The notes below the pieces were generated by a model that was not told the origin of the DNA, did no database searches, and saw only the letters and a list, made by a program, of their open reading frames with translations. Shown one piece after another: positions 47,467 through 64,000 of a DNA stretch of 64,000 bases. This DNA is from an uncultured Chloroflexia bacterium (GTDB lineage Bacteria > Chloroflexota > Limnocylindria > QHBO01): the NCBI GenBank assembly GCA_963814375.1, contig CAWFCQ010000005.1, positions 192,001-256,000 of the forward strand. Reading direction: 5' to 3'. The position numbers and the translations under genes were made by a program. Each line of letters starts with the position of its first letter. Position 1 is the first letter of the stretch.

Positions 47467-48652
47467 GAGCCGATGTCCACCAGCCGCGACCGATGCTCCG
47501 GCAGCGCCGCGGTCGGCCGCTCGTTCGTCGCCCGCCAGAGACGGCCCTCACCGAACCGATGCCGGATCCGCTCGAGCGACCATCGCAGCTCCTCCCAGCG
47601 CCCGGCGCGTGCCTCGAAGGCGGAGAGCTGGCGCGTGGCGGGATCGGCAAGGCGATCGAACGCCAGGTGCACCGATGCGACCCGCGGCTCTTCGGGCTCT
47701 TCGGCCTCTTCCTCTGCGAGTTGCCCGAGAGCGGAGCTAACGGCCAACTTCGAGCCTCTGCCTGGCCGAGAGTTGCCCACAGCCGCAACAGGTCGCCAAG
47801 GAACCGTGCCATCTGGTCCCTTCTTGGCCGTTAGTTCCGGTGGGCGGCAACTTCGGGCGCGCGCGGCGGCCTCGAGGCGCGACAGCAGCAGCCGCGCGAT
47901 CCAGTCCGGCTCGAGGGCCGGCTGGGGGAAGGGCTGCGCCACGCGCAGCATCGGCGCATCCTCGAGGACGAGCTCGAGCGTCGCCCGCCCCGGCGCAAGG
48001 CGCCGTTCGCGCAGCCGATCGCACAGGTCGGCGGCGAGCCGCCGCAGCGTGAGGCTCACCGCGCCGATCCCGTCGAGCGGCACCTCGAACTCCTCCGCCG
48101 CCTCGATCCGCTCGGGGCGCCGGCGGGGAACGATCGGCCGAGGGTCGTGGCCGCGGGCGAGGGCCTGGAGCCGCTCCCCGACCGGGCCGAACTGGGCGCC
48201 GACCGCGGAGCGCGGCAGACCGGCCAGCTGCCGCATCTCGGTCAGGCCGAAGAGACCGAAGCGCTGTCGCGTGGCCGCATCGGCGGGCAGCAGGGCCAGC
48301 GGCAGGTCGTCCAGCTCGTCGCGCTCCAGGATGCGGAAGGCGGCCGGCGCCTCGGGGCGCTCGAAGCGCGCCAACCGGGCGGCGAGCGTCGCCAGCCAGC
48401 GGTTGTCGCCGATCCCGCAGCGCACGGGCATCGGCGCCACCGCCCGGGTCAGCATCACCGCCCGCGCCGCGACCCGGCGTTCCGGCCCCCACATCGGCTC
48501 CAGCCCGGTGACGTCGACGAGCGCCACGCCGACGTCCACCGCCTCGACCCGCGGGGAGAGGTCGTCGAGTGCGTCGAGCATCGGCTCGAAGGGCGCCGTC
48601 TCCGCGTCGGGCGCGCGCAGCTCGGGCCAGGCGAGCACCAGCAGGCGGTCAT
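47463..48652 (-). CDS. imuB: ImuB-like Y-family polymerase homolog; apparent indel just after the ATG
   Basis: SPRVE....VALVDVTGL...WG.E; CGIGDNRWLATLAAR; L.DLPLALLP; LPRSAV.AQFG. The ATG overlapping the imuA stop is 1 nt out of frame. Confidence 0.8.
47718..47853. mobile_element. 136-bp palindromic MITE-like element, copy 2 (in frame within imuB)
   Basis: 30-bp TIRs GAGTTGCCCGAGAGCGGAGCTAACGGCCAA / TTGGCCGTTAGTTCCGGTGGGCGGCAACTT; central GTTGC-N8-GCAAC. Confidence 0.82.
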
Positions 48653-49443
48653 CAGGCGCCCACCACGCGCAGCGCCGGACGCTCCTCGGCTTGCTCCACC
48701 CCGCGTGGCGTTGCCGAGGCCGCCAGCAGCGGATCAATGCGCCTCCCCTCGCCGAACCACAGGTCGAGCTCGGCCGATCCGCCGGCCAGGGCCCAGCGCT
48801 GGCGCTCCACCACCGCGCGCGTGCGCTGGCCGACGAGGTCGCGGCCGATCGCCAGCCAGGCGGACCGATGCAGCGCCACCCGCACGCTCGCCGCCGCCCC
48901 GGCCACGGCCCGCCCGGCGGGGGCAAGGACCAGCACCGAGGTGGCTCCCGAGCGGGCCAGCAGCGTGCCGAGCCGATCCAGCGCGCGACGGTCCGGCACG
49001 GCGCGCTCGCCGAGGTCGAGGACGAGCGCGTCGATGAGCTCCGAGCGGCCGAGCCACGCGGCCAGCTCGATCGCCTCCTGCGGGTCGCGCGGGCGGGCGA
49101 CGAGGAGCCAGTCGAGGCTCACCCCGAGGCGCGCGGCCACGGCCGGGTCGAGGGTCCCGTCGAGGTCGAGCCAGGCCGCAAGCCCACCCGTCGCCTGGGC
49201 TGCGGCCAGCGTCCCGAGGGCCAGGGTCGAGGCGCCGCACCCCAGCGGCCCGTCCAGGAGCGCCAGCCCGCCGCGCGGCCAGCCGCCGGTGCCGAGCGCG
49301 GCGTCGAGCGTCGGATATCCGGTGGGGACGGGGGGCCGCGCTCGCTCCGGCATCGGCTCCGGGTCGCTTCCGCGACGCAGTGTCAGGCCGCGGGCACGCA
49401 GCGTCTCGAGCGCATCGGTGAGGGCCGCATCGGTCCGGGTCAT
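48652..49443 (-). CDS. imuA: RecA-like ImuA protein
   Basis: PTGYPTLDAALGTGGWPRG; degenerate P-loop GCGAST; LDPAVAARLGV; LexA box upstream. Confidence 0.85.
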   Translation of the reverse strand: MTRTDAALTDALETLRARGLTLRRGSDPEPMPERARPPVPTGYPTLDAALGTGGWPRGGLALLDGPLGCGASTLALGTLAAAQATGGLAAWLDLDGTLDPAVAARLGVSLDWLLVARPRDPQEAIELAAWLGRSELIDALVLDLGERAVPDRRALDRLGTLLARSGATSVLVLAPAGRAVAGAAASVRVALHRSAWLAIGRDLVGQRTRAVVERQRWALAGGSAELDLWFGEGRRIDPLLAASATPRGVEQAEERPALRVVGA

Positions 49444-49456
49444 TGGACTCTCGATC

Positions 49457-49474
49457 ATAGAACAGATGTTCTAT
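49457..49474. promoter_or_regulatory. LexA (SOS) box upstream of imuA
   Basis: ATAGAACAGATGTTCTAT; minus-strand promoter TTCCCG-N17-TATGAT. Confidence 0.9.
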
Positions 49475-49508
49475 TTCGGGAAGCCCTGTTATACTCGCCG
49501 ACGCCCGT

Positions 49509-49584
49509 GGGGATGTAGCTCAGCTGGGAGAGCACCGCGTTCGCATCGCGGGGGTCAGGGGTTCGAGTCCCCTCATCTCCACCA
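49509..49584 (+). tRNA. tRNA-Ala (CGC)
   Basis: Cloverleaf with acceptor GGGGATG/CATCTCC and G3:U70; anticodon loop TT-CGC-AT; TTCGAGT T-loop; encoded CCA; TATACT -10 at 49490. Confidence 0.97.
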
Positions 49585-49608
49585 CTTTCCCTCCCCCCTT
49601 CGCGCCGC

Positions 49609-49626
49609 CGTATATACGTATATACG
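49609..49626. repeat. AT-rich perfect palindrome CGTATATACGTATATACG
   Basis: Two tandem GTATATAC octamers; self-complementary. Confidence 0.8.
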
Positions 49627-49642
49627 CGCGCTCTCGAGACCG

Positions 49643-50833
49643 TCAGGCGCCGGCGGATGCCTCCTCCGCCCCTGGCGACGATTCGATCACCCGCTCCGGC
49701 GCCGCCAGGTAGGCGGCGTGGACGGCCATGATCTGCTCGACATCGCCCACGACGCGGGCGTGGAAGTCGGCTCGGAATGCCGCATCGGTCAACGCCAGCC
49801 CCGTGAAGTAGAGCGCCGAGACACCACCCAGCAGCGCGGCCGTGATGAGCAGCTCCACCGACACCAGCCGCGGCTCGCCGAGGAGCTCGAACCCGACGAA
49901 GGGGCGTACCGGCTCCCCGACCCACATCTCCTGGACCGATGCGGGAATCGCCAGCACCCCAAGCGCGACGAGGAAGAGGAGCACCAGCAGCGCCACGAAC
50001 AGGGACTGGACGAGCTGGCTGATGAGCATGAGGAGGACGAGGTTCAGCCGCTCCTGCCACGCGAGGCGCCGCGGAAGCGGCGCATCGGTCCGGATCACGT
50101 CATCCATCAAGGGCTCGGCCGGGGTTCCGGGCAGGAGAGCCAGGATGGCGGCCCAGTCGCGCTTCTCCTCGATCTCGCGCACCTCCGACCTGGCGCTCGT
50201 GACGACCAGGACCGTCGCCACCAGCATGAGGAGCCCGATGACCGCGGCGAGATCGGCACCGCCGAGGGTGTGCGCGGCCTGCCACAGCTCGGAGGCGAAG
50301 AGCAGGAAGACGACGAGGATGAGGAGCACCGGCAGGGTCCGGGCGACGAGCGTCGCGATCTGGCTCAGCTGCGCGCGCAGGTGACGCACCGCCCAGGCGG
50401 CGAGCTCGAGAAGGCCGAAGCCGGTCACGAGGTAGATGATTCCGACGCCGATGAGCACCGAGCCGGCGAAACCGATGACGGCGATCGGCGAGCGGTGGAT
50501 CACCGCGGCGGCCGCACCGGGCACCAGCCCGATCATGGCGACGTCGATGAGGTCGAGGCGTCCCGGTCCGAACGGCGGATGCCGGCGCAGGAGGAGGAAG
50601 GCGCCGAGCACGGCGAACGAGGCGATGATCGCGATGGCCATCGCCGCCGCGTTATCGGCGAGCGACGCCTCCGGGCGACGGCCCCACAGCAAAATCGTCC
50701 CGAGCACGATCCAGGCGGCGATGAAGGGAATCGCCCGCTGATCCATGCGCTGCTCGGTGCTGAACCCCTCGATCAGCTGCGGCACGCCGCGGCCGGCCAA
50801 CCAGCGCTCGATCTCCCGTCGCCGTTCGCGCAT
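49643..50833 (-). CDS. Hypothetical integral membrane protein
   Basis: Multi-TM; ERWL..RGVP and RTLP.LL...FL.F..E.WQ; start taken at MRERR. Confidence 0.75.
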   Translation of the reverse strand: MRERRREIERWLAGRGVPQLIEGFSTEQRMDQRAIPFIAAWIVLGTILLWGRRPEASLADNAAAMAIAIIASFAVLGAFLLLRRHPPFGPGRLDLIDVAMIGLVPGAAAAVIHRSPIAVIGFAGSVLIGVGIIYLVTGFGLLELAAWAVRHLRAQLSQIATLVARTLPVLLILVVFLLFASELWQAAHTLGGADLAAVIGLLMLVATVLVVTSARSEVREIEEKRDWAAILALLPGTPAEPLMDDVIRTDAPLPRRLAWQERLNLVLLMLISQLVQSLFVALLVLLFLVALGVLAIPASVQEMWVGEPVRPFVGFELLGEPRLVSVELLITAALLGGVSALYFTGLALTDAAFRADFHARVVGDVEQIMAVHAAYLAAPERVIESSPGAEEASAGA

Positions 50834-50961
50834 CGCGACCGATTGTGCACCGGCGCCATGCCGATTCGCCCGGCACTCCGACGCCGCCCACGGCATGATG
50901 TGCGTCGCACCGACGAGCTGGCCCGAGCGGCTCGATGCCATCAGAGGGAGGATGCAACCCC

Positions 50962-52107
50962 ATGTTCGACCTACGACGCTCGTTGATCGGCGTCGCCGTG
51001 CTCGCGTTCGTGGTCACCGCCTGCGGCGACCAGGCGCCGAGCTCCGAGGCTCCCGCCGCCAGCCCTGGCGGGAGCGCCGAGGAGAGCGCGGCACCGACCG
51101 AGAGCACCCCGGCCGCCTCCGAGGCCCCGCCGGCTGCCGGTGACAGCCGCTTGGCCGCCGTCCAGGAGCGCGGCAACCTCATCTGCGGCGTGAACGGCTC
51201 GCTGGCCGGCTTCAGCTTCCTCGACGAGGACGGCAACACCGTCGGCTTCGACGCCGACTTCTGCCGCGCCGTGGCGGCGGCCGTGCTCGGCGACCCGGAG
51301 GCGGTCGAGTATCGCGCCCTCTCGACCGACCAGCGCGGCCCGGCCCTCCAGACCGGCGAGGTGGATGTTCTCATCCGCAACACGACCTGGACCGTCAGCC
51401 GCGACACGACGTGGGGCCTCTTCGCGCCCACCACCTTCTACGACGGCCAGGCGATCATGGTGAACTCGACCGCGGTCGACGCGGCCACCATCGAGGACCT
51501 CGCCGGCGCCACGATCTGCGTCCAGACCGGCACGACCACCGAGCTGAACCTGGCCGATACGTTCGGCGCGGCCGGCATCGACTTCGAGCCGCTTCCGTTC
51601 GCGGAGATCGACCCGACCTATGCCGCCTACGAGGAGGGCCGATGCGACGCGGTCACCAGCGACCGTTCGCAGCTGGTCTCGCGCCGGACGGCGTTCGCCA
51701 CCCCGGATGACCACGTCATCCTCGATGAGGTGCTCTCAAAGGAGCCGCTCGGACCGGTCGCGCCGCTCGGCGACGACCAGTGGTTCAACATCGTGAGGTG
51801 GGTCGTCTTCGCGACCATCGAGGCCGAGGAGCAGGGCATCACGTCCGCGAACGCGGCCGAGATGGCCGAGACGAGCACCGACCCGGTCGTCCAGCGGCTG
51901 CTGGGCGTGACTCCCGAAGGGGCCGAGGCCTTCGACGATGGCCTAGGCCTCGAGCCGGACTGGGTGCTCACGATGATCACCGCCGTCGGCAACTACGGCG
52001 AGATCTACGAGCGCAACCTCGGCCCGGGCACCCCGTTCGAGCTCGAGCGCGGGCTGAACGAGCTGTGGACCAACGGCGGGCTCCTGTACGCGCCGCCGTA
52101 CCGCTAG
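50962..52107 (+). CDS. aapJ: General L-amino acid ABC transporter substrate-binding lipoprotein (AapJ/BztA type)
   Basis: Lipobox VTAC; RNTTWT.SRD, SKEPLGP, VGNYGEIYERNLG, GGLLYAPP. Confidence 0.9.
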   Translation: MFDLRRSLIGVAVLAFVVTACGDQAPSSEAPAASPGGSAEESAAPTESTPAASEAPPAAGDSRLAAVQERGNLICGVNGSLAGFSFLDEDGNTVGFDADFCRAVAAAVLGDPEAVEYRALSTDQRGPALQTGEVDVLIRNTTWTVSRDTTWGLFAPTTFYDGQAIMVNSTAVDAATIEDLAGATICVQTGTTTELNLADTFGAAGIDFEPLPFAEIDPTYAAYEEGRCDAVTSDRSQLVSRRTAFATPDDHVILDEVLSKEPLGPVAPLGDDQWFNIVRWVVFATIEAEEQGITSANAAEMAETSTDPVVQRLLGVTPEGAEAFDDGLGLEPDWVLTMITAVGNYGEIYERNLGPGTPFELERGLNELWTNGGLLYAPPYR

Positions 52108-52124
52108 GCCGATCTGGAGCCTGA

Positions 52125-52156
52125 GCCTCGGGGCCGGCACGAGCCGGCTCCGGGGC
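52125..52156 (+). terminator. Intercistronic hairpin after the binding-protein gene
   Basis: GCCTCGGGGCCGGC-ACGA-GCCGGCTCCGGGGC. Confidence 0.55.
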
Positions 52157-52176
52157 CACGCACCCCGACGGAACCG

Positions 52177-53364
52177 ATGACCAGCGCCGCCGGCGCGCCG
52201 GCCGAGGCCGGGACGCCGCTGTGGCGCGACGTCCGCGCCCTGCGCGTCGCGGCCCAGGTGGCGGTGATCCTCGGCGTCGGGCTGCTCGTCGCCTGGATGG
52301 CGAGCAACATGCTGGCCGCCATGGACGAGCGAGGGCTCGGCTTCGGCTTCAGCTTCCTGAACCGGCAGGCCGGTTTCGAGATCAGCGAGAGCCCGATCCC
52401 CTATTCGTCGACCGCGACGTACGGGACCGCCTTCCTCGTCGGCCTCTTCAACACGTTGTTCGTCAGCATCGTCGGGATCATCCTGGCGACGCTGCTCGGG
52501 ATCGTCGTCGGCGTCGCGCGGCTCTCGCCGAACTGGCTCGTCAGGCGCACCGCGTCCGGCTACGTCGAGCTGATGCGCAACACGCCGCTGCTCGTCCAGC
52601 TGTTCATCATCTACTTCGTCGTCTTCATCCAGCTGCCGTCGGTGGCCGAGTCGCTGGCCATCGGCCAGGGAGTCTTCCTCAACCAGCGCGGCCTCTTCGT
52701 GCCCGGTCCGCAGGTCGCGAGCGGCATCGGCCTCTGGCTCGCCTTCGGGGTGGCGGGCGTCGTCGCCCTCATCGGCGCACGCGCGTTCGCCGCACGACGC
52801 GAGGAGGCCGGCCACCCGATCCATGGCCTCAGAGCCGCCGGGTGGGTCGCGCTCATCGCCTTTCCGGTGCTCGGCTGGTTCGTCGCCGGCGGAGCGCCGC
52901 TGACGTTCGATCTCCCGGTGCGGGAGCGGTTCAACTTCGTGGGCGGCCTGCGGCTGTCGCCGGAGTTCACGGCTCTCCTCACCGGACTCGTGCTGTACAC
53001 CGCGGCCTTCATCGGCGAGGTGGTGCGCGGCGGGATCCAGTCGGTGCGGCGCGGGCAGCTCGAGGCGGCGCGCGCGCTCGGCCTGTCCGAGGGCCAGGTG
53101 CTCAGGCTCGTGATCTTCCCGCAGGCGATGCGCGTGATCGTTCCTCCGCTGACGAGCCAGTACCTGAACCTGGTGAAGAACTCGAGCCTGGCCATCGCCA
53201 TCGGCTATCCCGACCTGTTCAAGGTTGGCCAGACGATGGCGAACCAGACCGGCCAGCCGGTGTCGGTGATGATCCTGGTGATGAGCACCTACCTCGCGAT
53301 CAGCCTCGCCACCAGCGCGCTCATGAACCTCTACAACCGCCGCATCCAGGTGCTCGAGCGATGA
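52177..53364 (+). CDS. aapQ: Amino acid ABC permease (AapQ type)
   Basis: [40 protein letters not shown]. Confidence 0.9.
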
Positions 53365-54558
53365 CGGCAGAGACGCTCCCGCCGCCGCGCACCGTCGTCG
53401 GGCCGATGGCGTGGCTGCGCCAGAACCTCTTCTCGGGCTGGGCCAGCAGCCTCATCACCGTCGTCCTCGGCGTGACGATCGCCTGGGTCACGATTCAGGT
53501 GGCCGGATGGGCGGTGACCGATGCCCGGTGGGAGGTCGTCACCGACAACCTGCGGCTCTTCCTCATCGGCCAGTACCCGGCTGACCAGGCGTGGCGCATC
53601 CTGGCGGCCCTGACCCTGCTGTCGGTCCTTGCCGGGCTGTCGGCGGGAACCTTCGGCCGCGCCTCGCGGATGCTGGCGATCACGCTGTCGGTCGTCCAGG
53701 CGATGCTGGCGGCGCTCATGCTGGCCTCGCCGATCGGCCTCGTGGCGGTTGGGGCCATGGCCGCGAACGCCGCCCTCGTGTGGATCGGCTTCGTCGTCGG
53801 CCTGCGGAGGTGGATCCCGCGGCGCGCACTCGTCATCGCCTGGGCTGATCTCACTGCCGGTCAGCTACCTGCTTCTGGCCGGCTTCGGCGCCGGCACGCT
53901 CCTGCCATCGGTCTCGTCGAACGCCTGGGGCGGGCTGCTGCTGACGGTGCTTTTGGCGACGGTCGGGATCATCCTCTCGTTCCCGCTCGGCGTGCTCCTC
54001 GCGCTCGGACGGCGCAGCCGGCTGCCCGTGGTGCGCGGGCTATCGACCGGCTACATCGAGATCATCCGCGGCGTCCCGCTCGTGACGATCCTGTTCATGG
54101 CCGACATCATCCTGCCGCTCTTCCTGCCCGGCGAATGGCGGCTCGATCGCGTGGCGCGCGCGATGGGCGGCATCACCCTCTTCTCGGCGGCGTATGTGGC
54201 CGAAAACGTCCGCGGCGGCCTCCAGGCCATCCCGACCGGCCAGATCGAGGCGGCGCAGGCCCTCGGCCTGTCGGGCATCAAGACGAACCTCTACATCGTC
54301 CTGCCGCAGGCGCTGCGATCGGTCATCCCAGCCAACGTCGGCCTCTTCATCAGCCTGCTCAAGGACACGACCCTAGTCACGATCATCGGCCTCCTGGAGC
54401 TGCTCGGCATCGGCCGTGCGGTTCTCGCCCAGCCGGATTCGTTCGGCGCCAACATGGAGGTCTACGCCTTCGTCGCCGCCGTCTTCTTCGTCCTCTGCTA
54501 TGCCATGTCGCAGGCGAGCTACCGGCTCGAGCGTGCGCTCGGCGTCGGAACCCGCTGA
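53361..54558 (+). CDS. aapM: Amino acid ABC permease (AapM type); apparent frameshift near 53845
   Basis: WLRQNLFS, then [36 protein letters not shown] and KDTTLV in the second frame. Confidence 0.88.
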
Positions 54559-54572
54559 TGGAGCGCTCAACC

Positions 54573-55355
54573 ATGGACCAGAACCAGACCGATGCGGCGG
54601 CTGCCGCCACCGAGCCCGCCGAGGGAATCATCGTCGCGCGCGACGTGCACAAGTGGTTCGGCCAGCTCCACGTGCTGCGCGGGATTGACCTCGTCGTCGC
54701 ACCCGGCGAGGTCGTCGTCATCTTCGGCGCATCGGGCTCGGGCAAGTCGACCTTCATCCGCACGATCAACCGGCTCGAGGAGCACCAGCGCGGCGAGATC
54801 ATCGTCGACGGCATCCGGCTGACGAACGACGTCCGCAACATCGGCGCGATCCGCAGCGAGATCGGGATGGTATTCCAGTCGTTCAACCTGTTCCCGCACC
54901 TGACTGCGCTCCAGAACGTGACCCTGGCGCCCATGAAGGTGCGCGGCTACCCGCGAGCTGAAGCCGATGCCGTTGGCATGCAGCTGCTCGAGCGGGTCGG
55001 GATCCCGGAGCAGGCGCACAAGTACCCCGCCCAGCTGTCAGGTGGCCAGCAGCAGCGGGTCGCCATCGCCCGCGCCCTGGCCATGAACCCCAAGATCATG
55101 CTGTTCGACGAGCCGACGTCGGCCCTCGACCCCGAGATGATCAGCGAGGTGCTCGACGTCATGCAGTCACTCGCCCGCGACGCCGGGATGACGATGATCT
55201 GTGTCACCCACGAGATGGGCTTCGCCCGCGCCGTCGCCGACCGGCTGGTCTTCTTCGACCACGGCCAGATCGTCGAACAGGGCCCGCCCGCCCAGATCTT
55301 CGAGTCCCCGCAGCACGAGCGCACCCGCCGCTTCCTATCCCAGATCCTGCACTGA
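54573..55355 (+). CDS. aapP: Amino acid ABC ATP-binding protein
   Basis: [43 protein letters not shown]. Confidence 0.92.
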
Positions 55356-55388
55356 CCTCGGTCAGCTGCCACGGTGTACCGTGGCCGC

Positions 55389-55832
55389 ATGAAACGTGTC
55401 GAGGGCGGTGCGCGGATCGAGGCGCCGCCCGACGAGGTCTTCGCCTACCTCGCCGATCTCGACAACCTGGCCGAGTGGCAGACCGGCATCGTGACCGCAG
55501 AGCTGACCTCGCCCGGCGAGCCGACCGTCGGCACCACCGCCCGCGTCGTGCGCGAGCTGATGGGCAACCAGATCGAGGCGCCGCTGACGATCACCGCCTA
55601 CGACCCACCACGACGCCTCGCCATCACGTCCGAGGTATCCGGCGTGAATGCGGTCGCCGAGCTGGACCTGGCCGATGCAGGCGACGCCACCGACCTCGCC
55701 TTCGCGATGGAGATCCGCGGCTCGATGCTCACGAAGTTCATGGAGCCGATGATCGCCGGCGCTGCCAAGGGCGAGGTCGACGCGAGCCTGGCCCGCATCC
55801 AGGCTCGCTTCTCGCCATCACCTGCGGCCTGA
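55389..55832 (+). CDS. SRPBCC (START-like) family protein
   Basis: I.APPDEVFAYLADLDNLAEW. Confidence 0.85.
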   Translation: MKRVEGGARIEAPPDEVFAYLADLDNLAEWQTGIVTAELTSPGEPTVGTTARVVRELMGNQIEAPLTITAYDPPRRLAITSEVSGVNAVAELDLADAGDATDLAFAMEIRGSMLTKFMEPMIAGAAKGEVDASLARIQARFSPSPAA

Positions 55833-55848
55833 GCCACCCGCGGGACTA

Positions 55849-56806
55849 ATGCGCGCCTTCGTCACCGGCGGCGGCGGGTTCATCGGCCGCCATCTCGTCA
55901 GCCGCCTGCGCGGATCCGGCGCCGAAGTGCGCGCCATCGCCCGCAGCCAGCGCTCGGCCGGCAGCCTGTCCCGGGCCGGCTGCGAGGTCGTCGTCGCCGA
56001 CATCCTCGACGCCGATGCGCTTCGTCGCGCCATCGACGGCTGCGAGATCGCCTTCCACCTCGCCGGCGACTACCGGGTCGGCATCCGCGCTGAAGATCGG
56101 CCGGCGATGGAGGCCGCCAACGTCACCGCCACCGAGCGCCTGCTCGATGCGGCGACCAATGCCGGCGTCGCGCGCATCGTCCACGTCTCGACCATTAACG
56201 CCTTCGGCGACACCGGCTACCGGGTCGTCGACGAGGCCTACGAGCGACCGCGTCCGTATCGGTACGTCAGCTACTACGACGAGACGAAGCACCGCGCACA
56301 TCTCCTGGCGCACGAGCGGATCTCGGCCGGCGCGCCGATCCTCATCGCCCAGCCGGGCGGGGTCTACGGTCCGGGCGACCACTCCAGCCTTGGCGGCGTT
56401 CTGCGCGACGCGGCCGACCGGCAAGCTGCGCGCGCTCACCTTCGGCGACCTTGGCATGAACATGGCCCACGTCGAGGACATCGCCGAGGGGATCGCGCTG
56501 GTCGGCGAGCGCGGGACGCCGGGTCGGGCCTACGTCCTGGGTGGCGAGCTCACGACGATGGTCGAGCTGGTGCGGCGGGTAGCCGCCATCGCAGGTCACC
56601 GCCCACCGCGTCTCAGCACGCCGACCTGGGCATTGCGGGCGGCGGCGCCGCTCGTGAGGCGCATCGGTCCAGATCTGCGGGAACTGGTGAGCGCCAGCGC
56701 CGGCGTGACGTATTGGGCCACCGATGCCAAGGCGCGCGCGGAACTGGCCTACGCGCCGCGCGACCTCGAGGCGGGGCTGACCGAGGTGTTCGGCGCGCGA
56801 TCGTAG
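55849..56806 (+). CDS. NAD-dependent epimerase/dehydratase; apparent frameshift near 56415
   Basis: VTGGGGFIG, HLAG, YDETK (YxxxK), VYGPGD; second frame HVEDIAEG..G..YVLGG. Confidence 0.85.
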
Positions 56807-57456
56807 ACGCCAATGTGCCAGAGGCCGATCCGGTCGCTGGCGGCCGGCCGGAACCCGGCGTCGGCGAGGCGCCGCTCGATCCGCCGCAGGTCGTGGACGT
56901 AGCCCCGGCACCCGCCCCACAGACGGTCCCAGGCGAACTCAATGGCCCACAGCGGCCGGTTGACGAAGCCGCGCCAGCCGCGCGACTCGGGCACGGTGAT
57001 CGCGATCCGCTCGCCGGCGGTCTCGATCGCTCGCGCGACCAGGCGGTCGACATCACCGAAGCAGCAGATCACGCGGTCCATCACGACCCAGTCGTGAGGT
57101 TGCGCTTCGACATCGGCGGCATTGCCAACCTCGAAGGTCGATGCATCGGCGAACCCGGTGGCCTCGGCGCGGCGATTCGCCACCTCGATGCTGGCCGGCG
57201 AAAGGTCGATGCCGGTGGCCTGCCTGGCGCCCATCTCGAGCAGGGCGATGCTGAGAGCGCCGGTGCCGCACCCGAACTCGAGGACGGTCGGACGCCGCGT
57301 CGGAGCGTCTCGAAGCAGGTCGAGCATCGCCGCGCTCACATCGACGAGGTCGGGGAACTCATCGACATCGGCCCAGTCGGCGGCATGCGCGTCGAACTGG
57401 CGCGCGATCCGCGGGTCCGCGGGCGCGCAGCAATCAGGCGGCTCCTGGCTATCCAT
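56749..57456 (-). CDS. Class I SAM-dependent methyltransferase
   Basis: VLEFGCGTG, GIDLS, DRVICCF; leaderless TATGCT-N7-ATG. Confidence 0.85.
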   Translation of the reverse strand: MDSQEPPDCCAPADPRIARQFDAHAADWADVDEFPDLVDVSAAMLDLLRDAPTRRPTVLEFGCGTGALSIALLEMGARQATGIDLSPASIEVANRRAEATGFADASTFEVGNAADVEAQPHDWVVMDRVICCFGDVDRLVARAIETAGERIAITVPESRGWRGFVNRPLWAIEFAWDRLWGGCRGYVHDLRRIERRLADAGFRPAASDRIGLWHIGVYDRAPNTSVSPASRSRGA

Positions 57457-57496
57457 CCCGTCCAGCATATGGAGTGTCGCGACGCATCGCGACCGA

Positions 57497-57636
57497 TTCA
57501 CCAGAGCCGTACTGGGGGTTGCGTTCTCGCGATCTATCGCGGACTGGTGAGCCTGAGCGGCACCCGGAGGTGCGCCTTGTGCTGCGGAGCCCACGATCTT
57601 TCGCGGGAACGCAACCCCAACGCGCCCTCCGGTGAA
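57497..57636. mobile_element. 140-bp intergenic palindromic MITE/REP-like element
   Basis: About 46-bp imperfect TIRs TTCACCAGAG..GGGGTTGCGTTCTCGCGA / TCGCGGGAACGCAACCCC..CTCCGGTGAA. Confidence 0.75.
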
Positions 57637-57647
57637 CCAACCACGAT

Positions 57648-58419
57648 CTATCGCGAGCGGGCGGCGTTGGCCTTGATGGCATCGTGGAGGTACTGGGCCA
57701 TGCCCGGCGCGATCTTCTCGTAGGTGGCGTTGAAGCGCGGATCGGCGATGTACATCTCGGCCAGGCCGACATGGATCTCCGAGGAGCAGTCGTAGAACCA
57801 GCGGCTGATGTGCTGCCGATGCTCTTCGGCCGCGTCCATCGCCTCGGCGCTGTCGGCCGGGCAGCCCGGCCTTCATGGCGGCCACGATGCGATCGCCGTT
57901 GGCCTGCGTCTCGTCCTTCATGCGCTGCCAGTCGGCCTTGGTGTAGCTGCTCGTGCGCCGCTGTGACTCGCGGTAGGCATCGGTGTCGCCCCAGCGCTCC
58001 TCGACCTCATCGGTGTACTGATCCGGATCGAAGTCGCCGAAGACCTCGAGGCGCTCCTCCGGCGTCAGTGAAATTCCCATCGTTCGTGCCTCCATTGCCT
58101 TCTCGACCGCCGCGGCCATCCGCTCCAGCCTCCGGATCCGATCGCGCAGCATCGCGTGCTGGCGACGGAGGTGGGCCGATGCGTCCGCGCCGCCATCCGT
58201 CATGACCGTCCTGATGTCGTCAAGGCCGAACCCGAGCTCGCGGTAGAAGAGGATGCGCTGGAGCCGCTCGAGATCGGCGTCGTCGTAGCGGCGGTAGCCC
58301 GCGTCCGAGCGATCGCACGGCGACAGCAGGCCGATCTCGTCGTAGTGGTGCAGCGTCCGCACCGTGATCCCGGCCATCCGGGCCACCGCGCCAACCCTGA
58401 GCGTCGTCGGTTCGTCCAT
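57648..58419 (-). CDS. tipA: MerR-family regulator with TipAS domain (TipA-like); apparent frameshift near 57860
   Basis: VRTLHHYDEIGLL, LQRILFYRELGF, E..ERWGDTDAY.ES; second frame HRQHI..FY.C...H..LAEMYIADPRF. Confidence 0.85.
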
Positions 58420-58426
58420 CGGAGGC

Positions 58427-58457
58427 ACCCTAGAACCTACCGTAACGTGAGGGTCAA
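58427..58457 (-). promoter_or_regulatory. MerR/TipA-type promoter with 19-bp spacer
   Basis: TTGACC-CTCACGTTACGGTAGGTTC-TAGGGT; the spacer carries an imperfect dyad resembling the Streptomyces tipA operator. Confidence 0.8.
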
Positions 58458-60631
58458 GCGGGCTCGACGTTGCCAGTGCTGCCGTCGACGGTGATGCGCA
58501 TCCCGGTTCGCAGCCGGGCGGTCGCGTCGCCGCAGCCGACGACGGCGGGAATCCCGTACTCGCGGGCGATGATCGAGGCGTGTGCCGCGGCACTTCCCAC
58601 ATCGGTGACAACCGCGGCGGCGCGGCTGAAGAGCGGCGTCCAGGCCGGTGCGGTCATCGGCGCCACGAGGATCTCGCCCGGCTGAAACTCGTCGAAGTCG
58701 TCCGGGCCACGGATGACGCGCACCACGCCGGTAGCTCGGCCACCCGAGGCAGGGGTCCCGGTGACGAGCGCCGTCGATGAGGGCTCCGCCCCGAGCGCGC
58801 GAGGAAAGCCGTCCCACATCCGCCTCAGCATCGGATTGACGGTACCGATGAGCAGGGGCGGCACGAGGCGGGCCTGCTCGACGCGGAGGGCGCGACGGGC
58901 AGCCACGTCGACGCCCGGCTCCAGATGGCCGTGTACTACGGCAGCCAGCGCCTCTCCACGGGTGAGGAAGAAGATGTCGTCGGGCCCTTCGAGCAGCCCT
59001 CGCTCGACGAGCGCCTCACCGATCCTCTCCACGGCGCGCCGCATGACCGGCCAGGGAGCGGTGAGCTCGCTGATCTGCTGCTCGCGCAGCGGGACGAGAG
59101 ACTGCGCGTCGGCGAGAACGCGCTTGAAGGCCGCAAGACGGCGCGGCGACGAGGCCAGCGCTGCGAAGGCCTCCTCCTCGGCGGCGTGGCGCGCCTCCAC
59201 GAGGGCTCGCTGCGCCTCGGGCGGCGGCGGGGACTGTGTCGGGGACGCCGGGAAGAACCAGTCGAGCGAAACGATGGCGTGCGCGCCGTCCGCCGACGGC
59301 ATGCCAAACCCCGTCACCAGCGGGAGGTGGCTGCCGCCCAGCGCTGGACGCAGGTGCCGCCGGTAGAACCCGGCGAGGTTGAACTCGAGCTTGTACGCCG
59401 CGCCGGCCAGCGCCGCCAGCCAGCCGAAGCCCTCGCCGGCCAGGCCGGCCAGCTCGTCGATCAATGGCGGAAGCTCGGCGACGGGCAGCGTCTCAACCTT
59501 GGCCTCCGCGTCCAGGATGGCCACCCGGTAGCGCGGGCGAAAGTCCGCGCGCCACTCTCGCTCGACGGTTCGGAAGCTGTGCCGCACGGTCGCCGGCATG
59601 ACGCCCGCGAGGCGCCGAGGGTGTCGGACGAGGTGCCCGAGCATGCGTGGCAGGTTGCCGATCATGGCGGCCGGTGACGCCCAGTTGAGCGAGTAGAAGT
59701 ACCAGCCGTTGACCACGACGTGCAGGGGCGCGGGCGCGCGCTGCCCGATCTGCTCGACGAACCAGGCGTGCATCCCCGCCTCCATCACCGTCAGCAGCCA
59801 CGACTCGAACAGCGGTGTGACGGGCTCTCCGATCCATTCGCCGAGGCGGAACTGGCGGGTGAACGTGCCGGGCGCCGGCGGCGTCCATGACACCTCGAGC
59901 GGCAGGGCGGTCATCGGCCGAGCCTGCAGCAGCCAGAGCACGCCCGCGCCGTCGATGGCCCACTCGATGTCCTGCGGCATCCCACGCGCTTCGGCGATCC
60001 GTCGCGCCTCGCTGGCGATCTCGAGCGCCTGCCGCGCTTCGATGGCCGACTCGGGCTGCCGACGCGCGGTGGCCTGTCGCTCACGGACGACCCATTCGTC
60101 GCCGGCGGCCGCGCCGGAGACCAGCCGATCGCCGCGACCCCGCACCGCCGTCACGATGATCGACGACCGGTCGCCCGTGAGCGGATCGGCCGTGAGGACC
60201 ACGCCGGCCGCCACCGGCGCGACCATGCGCTGAACGATGACCGCCATGCGGTCGCTGGCCGTGCGCTCGTATTCCGTCACGCGCGCGGCGCGCGCGCTCG
60301 CCAGGCAGCGCTCGACGGCCTTGGCCACGTCGTCTGGCGCCACATCGAGCTCGGTCTCATACATGCCGGCGAACGACCGATCAACCCCGTCCTCAGAGAT
60401 CCCGCTCGACCGGACCGCAAATGGGCCGTTGCCCAGGTCCCGTGTGCCGTCGGCCCGGTCCCACGATCCATCCGACGACAGCGCCGATGGGGTTCCCGCC
60501 GTCACGACGACCCCATCGGGAACGCGAACGCCGGCGGCGATCAGCTCTCCGAGGCTGGCGGCCTTGCCGCCGACCTCAGCCGAGTCGGACGAGCGCACAT
60601 CGCGGAGACGACGGATGACGGCGGCGCTCAC
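58454..60631 (-). CDS. PEP-synthase-like phosphotransferase (rifampin phosphotransferase architecture)
   Basis: N-terminal ATP-grasp VGGKAASL, AVRSS..ED....SFAG, QDIEWA, LQARP; C-terminal His domain AHASIIAREYGIPAVVG. Confidence 0.8.
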   Translation of the reverse strand: MSAAVIRRLRDVRSSDSAEVGGKAASLGELIAAGVRVPDGVVVTAGTPSALSSDGSWDRADGTRDLGNGPFAVRSSGISEDGVDRSFAGMYETELDVAPDDVAKAVERCLASARAARVTEYERTASDRMAVIVQRMVAPVAAGVVLTADPLTGDRSSIIVTAVRGRGDRLVSGAAAGDEWVVRERQATARRQPESAIEARQALEIASEARRIAEARGMPQDIEWAIDGAGVLWLLQARPMTALPLEVSWTPPAPGTFTRQFRLGEWIGEPVTPLFESWLLTVMEAGMHAWFVEQIGQRAPAPLHVVVNGWYFYSLNWASPAAMIGNLPRMLGHLVRHPRRLAGVMPATVRHSFRTVEREWRADFRPRYRVAILDAEAKVETLPVAELPPLIDELAGLAGEGFGWLAALAGAAYKLEFNLAGFYRRHLRPALGGSHLPLVTGFGMPSADGAHAIVSLDWFFPASPTQSPPPPEAQRALVEARHAAEEEAFAALASSPRRLAAFKRVLADAQSLVPLREQQISELTAPWPVMRRAVERIGEALVERGLLEGPDDIFFLTRGEALAAVVHGHLEPGVDVAARRALRVEQARLVPPLLIGTVNPMLRRMWDGFPRALGAEPSSTALVTGTPASGGRATGVVRVIRGPDDFDEFQPGEILVAPMTAPAWTPLFSRAAAVVTDVGSAAAHASIIAREYGIPAVVGCGDATARLRTGMRITVDGSTGNVEPA

Positions 60632-61242
60632 GAGAGTTCGTCCGTTCGTGCCTGCGCGATGAGCGCTCGGAGGAACCAGTCGACGTCCTCCGCAGCCTGA
60701 TCCGGCGAGACCCCGAGATGATCGCGCCACGTCCGCAGCGAGGACTGGGAGACGAGGACGACCAGGAAGCGCGCAATCCGGTCCTGGTCGGTGCCGGTAA
60801 GCGGCGGCTCGACCGACTCGACCAGCCGACGCATCCTGGCGAAGCGTGAGGGCATCGTGACGTGCCTGACCTCGCCGGCGATCGGGCTGGCAAACGCAGC
60901 GCGCTCCATGTCGTCCAAGGCGTCGAGGCGCTCGATGAATCCGCGGACCGCGCTCTTGACGTCGCCGACGCTTTCCGGATCCGGCACCCGATCGAAGCCC
61001 GCGCGCCGAGCCGCGTGCGGGTACATCTGCGCGAGGAGATCGGCCTTTGTTCCGAAGTGCCGATACACCGTCGGGACCGACACTCCCGCCTCGCGCGAGA
61101 CCGCCGGGATGGACAGGCTCGCGAGGCCCGTCGACATGACCCGCAGAGCCGCGTCGAGGATCCGGCTCCGGGTCTCCTCCGCGTGCTCGGCTCGCAGCGT
61201 ACTGCGATATGCACGTGTCTCGCTATTAGCGATACGACTCAT
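60628..61242 (-). CDS. TetR/AcrR family regulator
   Basis: R.Y.S.LR...A..TR.RILDAA and AGVSVPTVYRHFGTKADL. Confidence 0.92.
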   Translation of the reverse strand: MSRIANSETRAYRSTLRAEHAEETRSRILDAALRVMSTGLASLSIPAVSREAGVSVPTVYRHFGTKADLLAQMYPHAARRAGFDRVPDPESVGDVKSAVRGFIERLDALDDMERAAFASPIAGEVRHVTMPSRFARMRRLVESVEPPLTGTDQDRIARFLVVLVSQSSLRTWRDHLGVSPDQAAEDVDWFLRALIAQARTDELS

Positions 61243-61267
61243 ATTGTGAATATATGACTCATGTCAA
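61236..61267 (-). promoter_or_regulatory. TetR promoter/operator
   Basis: TTGACA at 61262-61267; dyad TCATAT-N7-ATATGA and GACTCAT direct repeats overlap the start codon. Confidence 0.55.
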
Positions 61268-61317
61268 GCCTCGGTCCACATTGAGGGCATTCGGGCCCTG
61301 TGATAATCTCGGTGTGA

Positions 61318-61640
61318 CGCGTTGACGCGGGAGCCAGTACGCGCAAAGACCTCGTTTTCGAGCGAGCCGGGACGGTGGAAGCCGGCAAACGAGGAGCGCG
61401 GAACTCGCCCGTCGAGCAGCCCGGTGACGAGCCGGGCCGGGTGGCGCCCGATATCCGCGCTGACGAGAGGACCGACCGAATCCGTGGGGTTGTAGCTCAG
61501 CTGGGAGAGCACCTGCATGGCATGCAGGGGGTCGGGGGTTCGAGTCCCCCCAGCTCCACCACCCCATTGCGGGGAATGGCGGTCAAGCTCAGGTGGTACC
61601 GCGAAGCGCCCCTTCGTCCAGAGCGACGGAGGGGTTTGTC
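61318..61640 (+). ncRNA. T-box riboswitch (Leu, CUC specifier)
   Basis: Stem I with GA kink-turn, AGTA/GAA loop E, AGCGA bulge, GGTGGAA terminal loop and specifier CTC at 61404; T-box AGGTGGTACCGCG at 61591-61603; antiterminator; terminator CCCCTTCGTC/GACGGAGGGG-TTTGT; leuS downstream. Confidence 0.9.
61486..61561 (+). tRNA. tRNA-Ala (GGC), located inside the T-box leader
   Basis: 76-nt cloverleaf with acceptor GGGGTTG/CAGCTCC and G3:U70; anticodon loop AT-GGC-AT; TTCGAGT; encoded CCA. Confidence 0.97.
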
Positions 61641-62228
61641 GTGTCCGAGGATGAGAGCCCAGAACCGATGATCATGACCGGAGCCGGTGAAGCGAAGACG
61701 GCCCGCGATGGGCGCGGATGGACGCTGCGCCCCGCACGGCCGACCGACGGCCGCGCCCTGGCCCGCCTCTTCGCCGCCGTCCGGGACGAGGGCGAATGGC
61801 TTATCACTCCGCCGGGCGCGGTGAGCGAGCCCTCCGAGGCATTCTGGGTAGCCGAGATGATCCGTGCCGCCGAGCACCTGGTGCTGATCGCCGAGGCCGA
61901 TGCGGACGTGGTCGGCAACGTCTTGGTCAGCGTCGACCGCGGGGTCGCCACCGAGCACATCGGCGTGCTATCGATCACGATCGCCCACGACTGGCGCGAC
62001 GTCGGCATCGGCACCGAGCTCGTCGCGGCCGCGCAAGACTGGGCGACCAAGCGCCGCCTGCACAAGGTCTCGCTGGGCGTCTTCCCGGAGAACGTGCGCG
62101 CCATCGCGGTCTACGAGAAGCGTGGATTCGTGCGCGAGGGGCTCCGCCGCGACCAGTATCGGTCCGGCGAGCGCTTCCGCGACGAGGTGATGATGGCCTG
62201 GTTCCCTGACGAGGCGACGGACCGATGA
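61641..62228 (+). CDS. GNAT family acetyltransferase
   Basis: WRDVGIGTEL, LGVFPENVRAIAVYEKRGFVREG. Start uncertain (61641, 61668 or 61674). Confidence 0.85.
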   Translation: MSEDESPEPMIMTGAGEAKTARDGRGWTLRPARPTDGRALARLFAAVRDEGEWLITPPGAVSEPSEAFWVAEMIRAAEHLVLIAEADADVVGNVLVSVDRGVATEHIGVLSITIAHDWRDVGIGTELVAAAQDWATKRRLHKVSLGVFPENVRAIAVYEKRGFVREGLRRDQYRSGERFRDEVMMAWFPDEATDR

Positions 62229-64000
62229 CGACCGAGATGCCCTCCCGCACCCAGCGCCCGGACCGCTACGACCCGGCCGGCTTCGAGCAGGGATGGCGCG
62301 ATCGCTGGGAGGCGGACGAGCTGTACGCCGCCCGCGACGACGATCCGCGGCCGAAGCGCTACGACCTGACGATGTACCCGTATCCGTCGGGTGACCTGCA
62401 CATCGGCCATTGGTATGCCATGACCGGGCCGGACATCGTGGCCCGCATGCATCGGATGCAGGGCTTCAACGTCATGTTCCCGATGGGCTTCGACGGCTTC
62501 GGGCTGCCCGCCGAGAACGCGGCCATCGACCGCGGCATCCATCCGGCGACGTGGACCTACGAGAACATCAACACGATGCGCCGCCAGATGCGGCTGATGG
62601 GCGCGTCGTTCGACTGGAGCCGCGAGGTCGTCACCTGCGACCCGAGCTACTACCGCTGGCAGCAGTGGCTGTTCCTGAAGCTCTACTCCGCAGGGCTGGC
62701 GTACAAGGCGATGGGGACCGTCGACTGGTGCCCCAAGGACAAGGTCGTCCTGGCCCGTGAGCAGGTCGAGGGAACGGATCGGCGCTGCTGGCGGTGCGGC
62801 ACGCCGGTCGACAAGCGCGACCTCGAGCAGTGGTATTTCCGCATCACGAACTACAGCGACGAGCTGCTGAGCTTCGACGGGCTCGACTATCCCGAGCCGA
62901 TCAAGGCGATGCAGACGAACTGGATCGGCCGATCCGAGGGCGCCGAGATCGACTTCCCGACCGAGGCCGATGACGCCGAGCCGATCCGCGTCTTCACCAC
63001 CCGGCCGGACACCGTGTTCGGCGCCACCTTCATGGTCCTGGCGCCGGAGCACCCGCTGGTGGGCGTGCTGACCACCGACGACCGACGCGCCGATGTCGAC
63101 GCCTACGTCAGCGCTGCCCGGCGCGAGACCGAGATCGAGCGCATGAGCACCGAGCGCGAGAAGACCGGCGTGCCCATCGGCGCGCATGCCATCAACCCGA
63201 TGACGAGCGAGCGGATCCCGATCTGGATCGCCGACTACGTGCTGCCCGGGTACGGCACGGGCGCGATCATGGCCGTCCCCGCCCACGACGAGCGCGACTA
63301 CGAGTTCGCGAGGAAGTTCGACCTGCCGATCCGGTACGTGGTGGCGCCGGCCTCCGGCGAGCTGCCCACCGACAAGGCACTGGTGGAGCACTCCGCCGAC
63401 GAGGTGCTGGTCGACTCCGGAGAGTTCACCGGGATGCCGGCATTGGAGGCGATCGGCGCAATCACGCGTGCGCTCGAGGAGCGCGATCAGGGTCGCTTCG
63501 CGGTCACCTATCGCCAGCGAGACTGGGTCGCGGGCCGGCAGCGCTACTGGGGCGCACCGATCCCGATCATCTACTGCGACACCCACGGCGCCCAGCCGGT
63601 GCCGGAGGACCAGCTGCCCGTCGTGCTGCCGACCGACGTCGACTTCGCCCCCACCGGCGTGTCGCCGCTCCAGTCGCACGCGGAGTTCCTGAACGCGACG
63701 TGCCCGGTGTGCGGCGAGCCGTCGCGCCGCGAGACCGACACGATGGACACATTCGTCGACTCGTCCTGGTATTTCCTGCGCTACTGCTCGCCACACGACG
63801 AAACCGCTGCCTGGGACCGCGAGAAGGCCGACGCATGGATGCCGATTCACCTCTACGGCGGTGGAGCCGAGCACGCGGTCATGCACCTGCTCTACTTCCG
63901 CTTCTTCACCAAGGCGTTGCGCGACCTCGGCCTGCTCGGCTTCGACGAGCCGACGCTCAAGCTACGCAACCAGGGCCAGATCCTGGGGGCCGACCACAAT
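62225..64000 (+). CDS. leuS: Leucine--tRNA ligase (3' truncated by window edge)
   Basis: Read manually from ATG 62225: MYPYPSGDLHIGH, GFDGFGLPAENAA, NWIGRSEG, FTTRPDT, YGTGAIMAVPAHD, QRYWGAPIP, DTMDTFVDSSWYF, GGAEHAVMHLLY. Confidence 0.98.
   Translation, partial: MTTEMPSRTQRPDRYDPAGFEQGWRDRWEADELYAARDDDPRPKRYDLTMYPYPSGDLHIGHWYAMTGPDIVARMHRMQGFNVMFPMGFDGFGLPAENAAIDRGIHPATWTYENINTMRRQMRLMGASFDWSREVVTCDPSYYRWQQWLFLKLYSAGLAYKAMGTVDWCPKDKVVLAREQVEGTDRRCWRCGTPVDKRDLEQWYFRITNYSDELLSFDGLDYPEPIKAMQTNWIGRSEGAEIDFPTEADDAEPIRVFTTRPDTVFGATFMVLAPEHPLVGVLTTDDRRADVDAYVSAARRETEIERMSTEREKTGVPIGAHAINPMTSERIPIWIADYVLPGYGTGAIMAVPAHDERDYEFARKFDLPIRYVVAPASGELPTDKALVEHSADEVLVDSGEFTGMPALEAIGAITRALEERDQGRFAVTYRQRDWVAGRQRYWGAPIPIIYCDTHGAQPVPEDQLPVVLPTDVDFAPTGVSPLQSHAEFLNATCPVCGEPSRRETDTMDTFVDSSWYFLRYCSPHDETAAWDREKADAWMPIHLYGGGAEHAVMHLLYFRFFTKALRDLGLLGFDEPTLKLRNQGQILGADHN

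Follow-up and report, generated by a model that had tools for sequence, protein, structure and literature searches.

The window analysed here is a 64,000-nucleotide (nt) stretch of DNA from an uncultured Chloroflexia bacterium (assembly GCA_963814375.1, contig CAWFCQ010000005.1, positions 192,001 to 256,000 of the forward strand). Towards its 3' end it encodes a leucine (Leu) T-box leader, a GNAT acetyltransferase and the 5' part of leuS, the gene for leucyl-tRNA synthetase (LeuRS). We identified a complete gene for an alanine transfer RNA (tRNA), tRNA-Ala(GGC), inside the leader, where it forms the apical part of Stem III. A preliminary description, made from the sequence alone, had proposed a Leu T-box with a tRNA in the Stem III position and GNAT and leuS downstream, and Rfam, ARAGORN and the sequence agree with this arrangement. 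The specifier that it named and the positions that it gave for TGTGATAAT, for GACCG (61470-61474) and CGGTC (61580-61584), and for AGGTGGTACCGCG also agree with the sequence. All features are placed in Table 1.

Table 1. The nested T-box/tRNA unit of the window, its parts in order along the + strand, and the neighbouring genes. ORF, open reading frame.
Feature	Position	Strand	Basis and remarks
Leu (CUC) T-box leader	61313-61635	+	tRNA-Ala(GGC) gene forms apical part of Stem III; upstream of GNAT-leuS
Promoter-like extended -10, TGnTAATCT (TGTGATAAT at 61299-61307)	61300-61308	+	about 5 nt ahead of T-box model start
T-box Stem I (K-turn, S-turn/specifier loop, AG bulge, distal loop)	61313-61417	+	RF00230 alignment; genus-wide conservation
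Specifier codon CUC (Leu)	61404-61406	+	GAA before, purine G after (GAA-CUC-G, 61401-61407)
Stem II and Stem IIA/B region	61418-61464	+	hairpins align to Rfam model
Purine string GAGAG	61465-61469	+	sequence; covariation
Stem III 5' strand GACCGAC	61470-61476	+	sequence; covariation
tRNA-Ala(GGC) with G3:U70, A73 and encoded CCA	61486-61561	+	ARAGORN; Rfam tRNA 62.5 bits against a cut-off of 29
3' trailer, 16 nt, small lineage-specific hairpin CCCC..GGGG	61562-61577	+	length and sequence vary among genus members
Stem III 3' strand GGCGGTC, then conserved AA	61578-61586	+	sequence; covariation
Antiterminator	61587-61624	+	helix A1 61587-61593/61618-61624; helix A2 61601-61605/61613-61617
T-box bulge UGGUACC	61594-61600	+	between A1 and A2; UGGU complementary to ACCA of the genome's tRNA-Leu(GAG)
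Terminator hairpin and U-rich tail	61608-61645	+	arms 61608-61618/61625-61635; -20.1 kcal/mol
GNAT acetyltransferase gene, first of regulated operon	61668-62228	+	Pfam Acetyltransf_1, E 1.5e-16
leuS, 5' part	62225-64000	+	LeuRS editing domain (Pfam), E 3.5e-65; ORF leaves window
TetR-family regulator gene, divergent	60628-61242	-	Pfam TetR_N, E 1.6e-13
tRNA-Ala(CGC)	49509-49584	+	ARAGORN; 12 kb upstream of leader, same strand

A sensitive Rfam scan of 61200-61700, a check that the preliminary description had called for on the intact region, aligned the T-box model RF00230 end to end (model positions 1-219) to 61313-61624, with a sub-threshold score that is taken up below. The alignment runs across the tRNA, with 101 nt inserted in the Stem III loop. 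The genome encodes a tRNA-Leu(GAG) with a 3' ACCA, and this tRNA fits the CUC specifier as well as the UGGU of the T-box bulge. The T-box sequence itself, AGGTGGTACCGCG, occupies 61591-61603. The helix closing around the tRNA had been given as GACCG/CGGTC; its position was right, and its extent is in fact seven positions (GACCGAC/GGCGGTC) with one A.G mismatch. A linker of 9 nt separates its 5' strand from the tRNA. The discriminator purine motif GAGAG (61465-61469) precedes Stem III and AA (61585-61586) follows it, and a motif of the form RRRNG-Stem III-AA is described for the T-box discriminator domain in the accessible parts of two papers (PMC7778990, PMC7583486).

The antiterminator and terminator are mutually exclusive, with 61613-61624 as the common strand. 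Folded alone, the antiterminator region reaches -12.2 kcal/mol. The minimum free energy fold of the whole 333-nt leader holds both the terminator and the helix that closes around the tRNA. Elsewhere the same genome has, as its third T-box hit, an ordinary T-box of 197 nt (L001, G000:C4:50834-51030) with a simple Stem III hairpin and the probable specifier GUC, followed by an ORF that looks like valS, its N-terminus judged by eye. The genome thus also has canonical T-boxes, and L001 serves as an internal control.

Whole-genome annotation with ARAGORN placed tRNA-Ala(GGC) solely at two nested sites, that of the window and that of a second version of the region in the same bin; tRNA-Ala(UGC) and tRNA-Ala(CGC) were found elsewhere. 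We surveyed 40 relatives, 24 of them of the same genus, by BLAST. The whole nested unit is present in 16 of the 24 same-genus genomes at 81-87% identity (one of the 16, G006 with locus L014, is flagged as unpublished), and contig-end fragments in four further genomes bring the number to 20/24. In the remaining four, which are 56-83% complete, BLAST matches are limited to the tRNA range. ARAGORN identified tRNA-Ala(GGC) in 22/23 loci, the exception being a valS-type T-box locus. Near-invariant in the genus alignment are the tRNA, the specifier box GGAACTC(G/A)CC, AGCTCAGGTGGTACCGCG and the terminator stem, while the linkers and trailer that flank the tRNA vary.

Across the class, we scanned 301 genomes for an exact pattern consisting of the tRNA T-loop, a gap and then GGTGGTACCRCG. 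The pattern matches 119 genomes, or 111/293 without the eight flagged as unpublished (G256, G089, G128, G266, G312, G144, G178 and G118), and the reversed pattern, run as a control, has 0 matches in the 301. By family, designated f1 to f5, the matches are 64/103 genomes in f1, 54/92 in f2, 0/91 in f3, 0/12 in f4 and 0/2 in f5. These are undercounts, as the exact pattern misses units of family f5 and of genus g14. A locus of family f5 (L156) has an Rfam T-box of 108.2 bits with a nested tRNA and a CUC specifier, and a bulge of UGGCACC rather than UGGUACC. Genus g14 has 0/16 matches by pattern, yet all four of four genomes score 124-127 bits with R1, a covariance model of 150 positions that comprises Stem III, the tRNA and the antiterminator. 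The nested unit thus occurs in three families of the class. All six f2 loci that were fetched have an Rfam T-box (69.8-96.7 bits; the highest, L026, is over the Rfam cut-off of 93) with tRNA-Ala(GGC) inside. Their Stem III helices differ, e.g., GAGAC/GTCTC and GAGAGCATC/GATGCTCTC. The UGGC bulge of L156 would pair with a G73 discriminator.

The same pattern was then applied to one genome per species, about 185,000 species in all, and yielded at least 119 loci; the counts, distances and proportions given for this set, here and below, are those among the matches listed. Many tRNAs share the T-loop motif of the pattern, and the scan was not aimed at any one of them. ARAGORN identified tRNA-Ala(GGC) at the pattern site in 111/119 loci. 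As for the other eight, two are truncated at the end of a contig or locus (L050 and L077), one has leuS downstream and no tRNA call (L144), and five have neither tRNA nor leuS (L055, L058, L063, L068 and L075) and are probably chance matches. We found leuS on the same strand within 1.5 kb downstream at 102 of the 119 loci and at 1.7-1.9 kb at four; four have no downstream sequence to read, and at nine leuS was not seen within the locus. One of these nine is L044 (Desulfotruncus alcoholivorax), where a gene for an AMP-binding enzyme intervenes and leuS lies about 2 kb downstream. In all but three of the loci with enough upstream sequence, the motif GAACTC[GA] precedes the nested tRNA by 73-196 nt.

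The carriers belong to two phyla. According to the titles of the first 80 loci, those in the Chloroflexota include Thermomicrobiales, Limnocylindria, Ktedonobacteria, Chloroflexia, Anaerolineae and Caldilineae, and those in the Bacillota include Syntrophomonadaceae, Peptococcaceae, Thermoanaerobacteraceae and Thermacetogeniaceae. In 8/20 of the first loci the nested leader scores above the Rfam cut-off of 93 (97-133 bits) with the tRNA inside the hit. With R1, 26/150 other high-quality genomes of the window's phylum score at least 97 bits. In the phylum of Thermosyntropha, 42/151 genomes have one hit each with E up to 1e-21, and 37 of the 42 reach at least 110 bits. Five named genomes have exactly one strong hit each (106-157 bits). 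The model has a grey zone in which nested units with long linkers (87-95 bits) meet plain tRNA-Ala genes (up to about 89 bits); the match in an unpublished genome, G339, is at the tRNA level only. A few carrier bins are labelled Proteobacteria or Acidobacteria, and nested units at L037, L038, L054, L061 and L101 are in bins labelled Acidiferrales, Proteobacteria, Sphingomonadaceae and Methylocystaceae. The units in bins of these types may represent mis-binned contigs or horizontal transfer.

The nested tRNA has the features expected of a tRNA for alanine. The G3:U70 pair, an identity element for AlaRS, is present in 49/49 aligned homologues, and all four stems of the cloverleaf covary. The discriminator base is A in 111/111 nested tRNAs among the matches listed. 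CCA is encoded in 91 of these 111 and in 0/6 of the f2 loci. The preliminary description had raised a pairing in cis between the ACCA of the tRNA and the UGGU of the bulge. This pairing is not a conserved feature because CCA is not always encoded (absent from 20/111 nested tRNAs and 6/6 f2 loci). Between the start of Stem III and the tRNA lie 7 to 54 nt (mode 11, typically 9-12), and between the discriminator base and AA 13 to 67 nt (mode 17). Loose linkers and an optional CCA argue against a fixed tertiary relation between tRNA and T-box.

Stem III itself is supported by covariation. We anchored a helix of 6 base pairs on RRRNG and AA in 107/111 loci, choosing the best-pairing anchors, which makes the count somewhat favourable. 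At least five of six pairs are standard in 93/107 loci, with 72 distinct helices. The mean is 5.17 pairs, versus 3.58 +/- 0.10 after permutation of the strands (maximum 3.93 in 2000 permutations). A seed alignment of 29 sequences, made with MAFFT and a hand-written structure, has changes on both sides in 5/6 Stem III pairs and 92% of Stem III cells paired; over the whole structure 98.3% are paired, versus 84% in shuffled and about 50% in slid versions. A model-fitted alignment of 123 distinct rows, which leans towards the structure of the model, has compensatory changes in 6/6 Stem III pairs with 89.5% of cells paired. At position 3 of Stem III, for example, it has CG in 46 rows, UA in 28 and GC in 14. 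Helices A1 and A2 and all tRNA stems also covary in this alignment, and its whole structure is 97.6% paired versus about 50% when partners are slid. MAFFT with RNAalifold on 49 diverse sequences recovered the cloverleaf and missed Stem III, whose strands were misaligned owing to the variable linkers. The preliminary description had suggested a survey of the leuS leaders of relatives; the T-box and tRNA arrangement recurs across two phyla, and its closing helix covaries.

We identified one conserved promoter-like element, and it lies upstream of Stem I. The sequence TGTGnTATCCT is kept there in the 18 same-genus loci for which we have sequence, and an equivalent TATACT element is present in 6/6 f2 loci. 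This agrees with the single promoter noted in the preliminary description. A consensus promoter scan, which needs a -35 box, found no full -35/-10 site on the + strand of the window. There is no conserved -10 element between Stem IIA/B and the tRNA, and no space for a promoter between the 5' domain of the T-box and the tRNA, because the purine string and Stem III occupy it. The placement of the promoter thus points to a single transcription unit, as far as sequence can tell.

Some lineages have a second alanine tRNA at the start of the unit. In 19/93 loci with enough upstream sequence, a tRNA-Ala(CGC) immediately precedes the T-box leader on its 5' side, at 194-335 nt from the nested tRNA (L035, L045, L052, L065, L066, L080, L081, L084, L089, L093, L096, L097, L105, L108, L119, L127, L137, L139 and L145). 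In six loci that were inspected, the K-turn/S-turn motifs of the T-box start about 10-45 nt past tRNA-Ala(CGC), and in 5/6 a TTGACA-N17-TAnAnT promoter is just upstream of this tRNA. In these lineages the 5' domain of the T-box is a spacer between two tRNA-Ala genes, which strengthens the case for a single transcription unit.

RNA libraries from three studies yielded assembled contigs, with 90-95% similarity to the window, in which parts of the T-box are continuous with the tRNA. X3 record 16 (511 nt, depth 86.8) spans 61360-61634 and includes both T-box parts and the tRNA. X2 record 9 also joins T-box parts and tRNA, and X6 record 24 bridges the 3' junction only. Transcript starts, ends and strand are not readable from such contigs, and none of those examined spans 61250-61317. 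One contig, X1 record 1, stops 4 nt into the tRNA; we considered it as a sign of cleavage and rejected it, as the assembly most likely broke off there at a conserved repeat.

Families f3 and f4 represent a different state. In three f3 loci (L152, L153 and L155) and one f4 locus (L154), tRNA-Ala(GGC) lies 50-190 nt upstream of leuS. No T-box is detectable at these four loci, where an Rfam search up to E 1 has no hit. A -10-like hexamer (TACACT, TAGAAT or TATACT) is found about 10 nt upstream of the tRNA, and in the three f3 loci a GC-rich hairpin (CCCCTCGCCGG..CGGCGGGGGG) follows it. A promoter for the tRNA thus appears where the 5' domain of the T-box is missing, which supports transcription from the T-box promoter where the domain is present. 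These loci show that the linkage of tRNA and leuS outlives the riboswitch.

The gene next to the leader encodes a GNAT protein for which no NCBIfam family reaches its cut-off. Its start is ATG 61668 and not GTG 61641, and the ATGATC start is kept across the genus. The start of leuS overlaps the GNAT stop (ATGA). The GNAT gene is kept between T-box and leuS in the genus and is absent from family f2, where leuS is directly downstream. Other lineages carry other genes before leuS, e.g., that for the AMP-binding enzyme in L044. The nearest named contigs, labelled Candidatus Limnocylindria or Chloroflexota, encode a LeuRS 84-89% identical to that of the window.

The window is part of contig C5 of a 2.5-Mb bin, and contig C2 of this bin bears the second version of the region. 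Window positions 47854-63999 and G000 contig C2:222780-239797 are collinear over 16 kb at 91.5-93% identity, with the nested unit in both. The bin probably mixes two related strains, and its two nested copies are better read as orthologues than as paralogues. Several tRNA clusters also occur twice in the bin, between contigs C4 and C8.

We consider it likely that the locus is a working Leu T-box attenuator whose leader is also the precursor of tRNA-Ala(GGC), and that the arrangement goes back to one ancient fusion. This reading takes in the anatomy, conservation, covariation and promoter placement described above, as well as the single-copy status of the tRNA in the genome. A complete, functional tRNA-Ala(GGC) gene would stand in place of the apical loop of Stem III. 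Transcription would start from one promoter upstream of Stem I, so that every transcript, terminated or read-through, would carry the tRNA, and RNase P and 3'-end processing enzymes would release it. The output of tRNA-Ala(GGC) would then track promoter activity, and that of leuS would follow the product of promoter activity and tRNA-Leu(GAG)-dependent antitermination. The tRNA would fold on itself and join its own ends, so that the base helix of Stem III and the flanking purines could still form the discriminator domain. The variable linkers, and CCA in only 91 of the 111 nested tRNAs, suggest that the tRNA is an entrenched passenger of the fusion rather than a part of the sensor. That the leader doubles as a tRNA precursor was already proposed in the preliminary description; the sole GGC copies in the genome, the lack of promoter space and the -10 hexamer where the T-box is lost now point the same way. 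Co-transcription, processing and an intact T-box response are what we infer from these features.

Several observations weigh against this reading. The window T-box scores 38.6 bits with RF00230 (local E 3.8e-7), below the curated gathering cut-off of 93, and Rfam run at the gathering threshold reports no T-box for the window leader. We attribute the low score to the 101-nt insertion and to GC-rich divergence, since model positions 1-219 are fully matched. Helix A1 of the window contains an A.A mismatch, and the U-tract is weak (UUUGUCGUG). When the four best non-nested R1 hits per genome were checked in five other genomes, one of the five (G452) had a second, non-nested candidate tRNA-Ala(GGC), and so the nested copy is not always the sole one. 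The RNA-library contigs lend weak support to a joint transcript of leader and tRNA, as they come from relatives and may reflect DNA carry-over. Finally, a passenger model leaves unexplained that the tRNA has stayed exactly inside Stem III across two phyla and has not moved to a site beside the T-box.

This constant position would be accounted for by a regulatory coupling, in which the nested tRNA or its excision belongs to the switch, and so would the presence of the same tRNA each time (111/119 loci) in a scan not aimed at it. Such a coupling widens the idea of the preliminary description that processing kinetics could gate leuS expression. By cutting the nascent leader, RNase P could detach Stem I from the discriminator and so restrict induction, the additional 100 nt or so could provide a delay for the binding of tRNA-Leu, or the excision could determine where the leuS mRNA begins and how stable it is. 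Conversely, tRNA-Leu on the T-box might modulate the maturation of tRNA-Ala(GGC). We judge coupling to be unlikely. In compact versions of the unit the 5' leader and the 3' trailer are indeed base-paired as far as the tRNA itself, and cleavage of the B. subtilis thrS T-box leader is a precedent for an effect of cutting on expression. Cleavage also affects expression from the S. aureus met T-box leader, according to the accessible part of PMC7913692. The accessible part of another study reports that pairing of a 5' leader with the 3' RCCA inhibits RNase P (PMC9433436); here Stem III pairing starts a few nt past the CCA, so an effect on cleavage at this locus is conjecture. A precise structural coupling is hard to square with linkers of 7-54 and 13-67 nt, with the additional hairpins of some lineages and with a CCA that is not always encoded. 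Moreover, families f3 and f4 retain tRNA-leuS without a T-box, T-boxes generally work without a nested tRNA (the putative valS T-box of the same genome has a plain Stem III hairpin), and the only conserved sequences that we saw belong to the known elements of T-box and tRNA. A specific form of coupling seems to us slightly more doubtful still, namely that tRNA-Leu occupancy and cleavage by tRNA enzymes interact, such that Leu charging would tune the maturation of the tRNA that reads GCC/GCU, and excision by RNase P would time or cap leuS induction and define the 5' end of the leuS mRNA.

The hairpin at 61608-61635 might act mainly on translation rather than as a transcription terminator, by sequestering the Shine-Dalgarno-like GGAGGGG (61628-61634) in its 3' strand, as in actinobacterial translational T-boxes. 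An in-frame GTG follows at 61641, the window U-tract is weak, and a consensus terminator scan, which needs a run of T, found no + strand site in the window. We regard this as improbable: the start conserved in the genus is ATG 61668, about 30 nt past the hairpin and with its own GGAG-like motif, and most genus members have a T-rich run after the hairpin (TTCGTTGTTGT), as family f2 has a clear run of T4-5. Furthermore, Stem I is full length, unlike that of most translational T-boxes as described in the accessible part of PMC7583486. It is a little less probable again that the tRNA gene stands alone, with a promoter of its own, between decaying relics of a T-box. The sub-threshold score of the window T-box and the loss of the T-box with the tRNA kept in f3 and f4 could be taken this way, but the T-box elements are conserved, covariation is seen in A1, A2 and Stem III, relatives score above the Rfam cut-off, and the space from Stem IIA/B to the tRNA is full and holds no conserved -10. 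There is practically no chance of an assembly artefact or chimeric contig. The bin does hold two related versions of the region, but both bear the nested unit, which is also found in more than 100 independent assemblies including those of the isolates Thermosyntropha lipolytica DSM 11003 and Desulfotruncus alcoholivorax DSM 16058. These assemblies, together with the reversed-pattern control (0/301), exclude chance or misassembly. The preliminary description had named misassembly, and a one-off insertion with a decayed T-box, as scenarios that would undo its proposal; the recurrence in independent assemblies disposes of the former and conservation across two phyla of the latter.

Like canonical transcriptional T-boxes (RF00230; e.g., the B. 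subtilis tyrS, glyQS and leuS leaders), the leader has a full Stem I, hairpins that align to the model in the Stem II/IIA-B region, a Stem III flanked by RRRNG and AA, a UGGN bulge, a competing antiterminator and terminator, and a synthetase gene downstream that matches the specifier. Unlike in these, the apex of Stem III is a 76-nt tRNA gene for a non-cognate amino acid, plus linkers, and the leader would therefore also be a tRNA precursor. Extra structured RNA in the discriminator half is known from stem Sa of the staphylococcal glyS antiterminator and from Stem III/helix A2 insertions of translational T-boxes. Those are simple helices without a function of their own, whereas the insertion here is a complete gene for another RNA and occurs across phyla. 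In the thrU-tyrU-glyT-thrT-tufB operon of E. coli, tRNAs are cut from a transcript that also carries the mRNA of a translation factor. Those tRNAs are separate and upstream of the mRNA, whereas the tRNA here is between the sensing and switching halves of the leader. As with the processed T-box leaders of B. subtilis thrS and S. aureus met, endonucleolytic cleavage of the leader would be expected, although here the cutting would be done by tRNA-maturation enzymes and would release a functional tRNA. RNase III cuts the S. aureus met leader, according to the accessible part of PMC7913692, and insertions of unknown function occur in every T-box domain, according to that of PMC7583486.

In the literature searched in full text, a scope outside which lie the comparative surveys of Vitreschak et al. 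(2008) and Gutierrez-Preciado et al. (2009) and the TBDB tables, we found no description of a tRNA gene inside a T-box. This agrees with the statement in the preliminary description that no T-box of such architecture has been described. We conclude that the nested unit is real and conserved, and undescribed as far as the literature is searchable.

T-boxes are among the best-studied RNA switches, and we found none with another functional RNA gene inside. The nested unit occurs in roughly one sixth to one quarter of the sampled genomes in two phyla. It implies that a terminated leader, normally discarded, can serve as a productive tRNA precursor, and it is a natural test of the cargo capacity at the apex of the discriminator-domain Stem III. 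Co-transcriptional folding of a riboswitch would here be pitted against RNase P and 3'-end processing on one molecule. For annotation, the finding means that Rfam thresholds miss many such leaders and that overlapping tRNA and riboswitch calls resemble errors. The unit is also a marker for the history of leuS regulation, in which the T-box was lost with tRNA-leuS kept or its 5' domain became a spacer in a tRNA-Ala operon. If tRNA-Leu occupancy and tRNA-enzyme cleavage did interact, the unit would be a riboswitch that gates tRNA biogenesis and couples the decoding of two amino acids.

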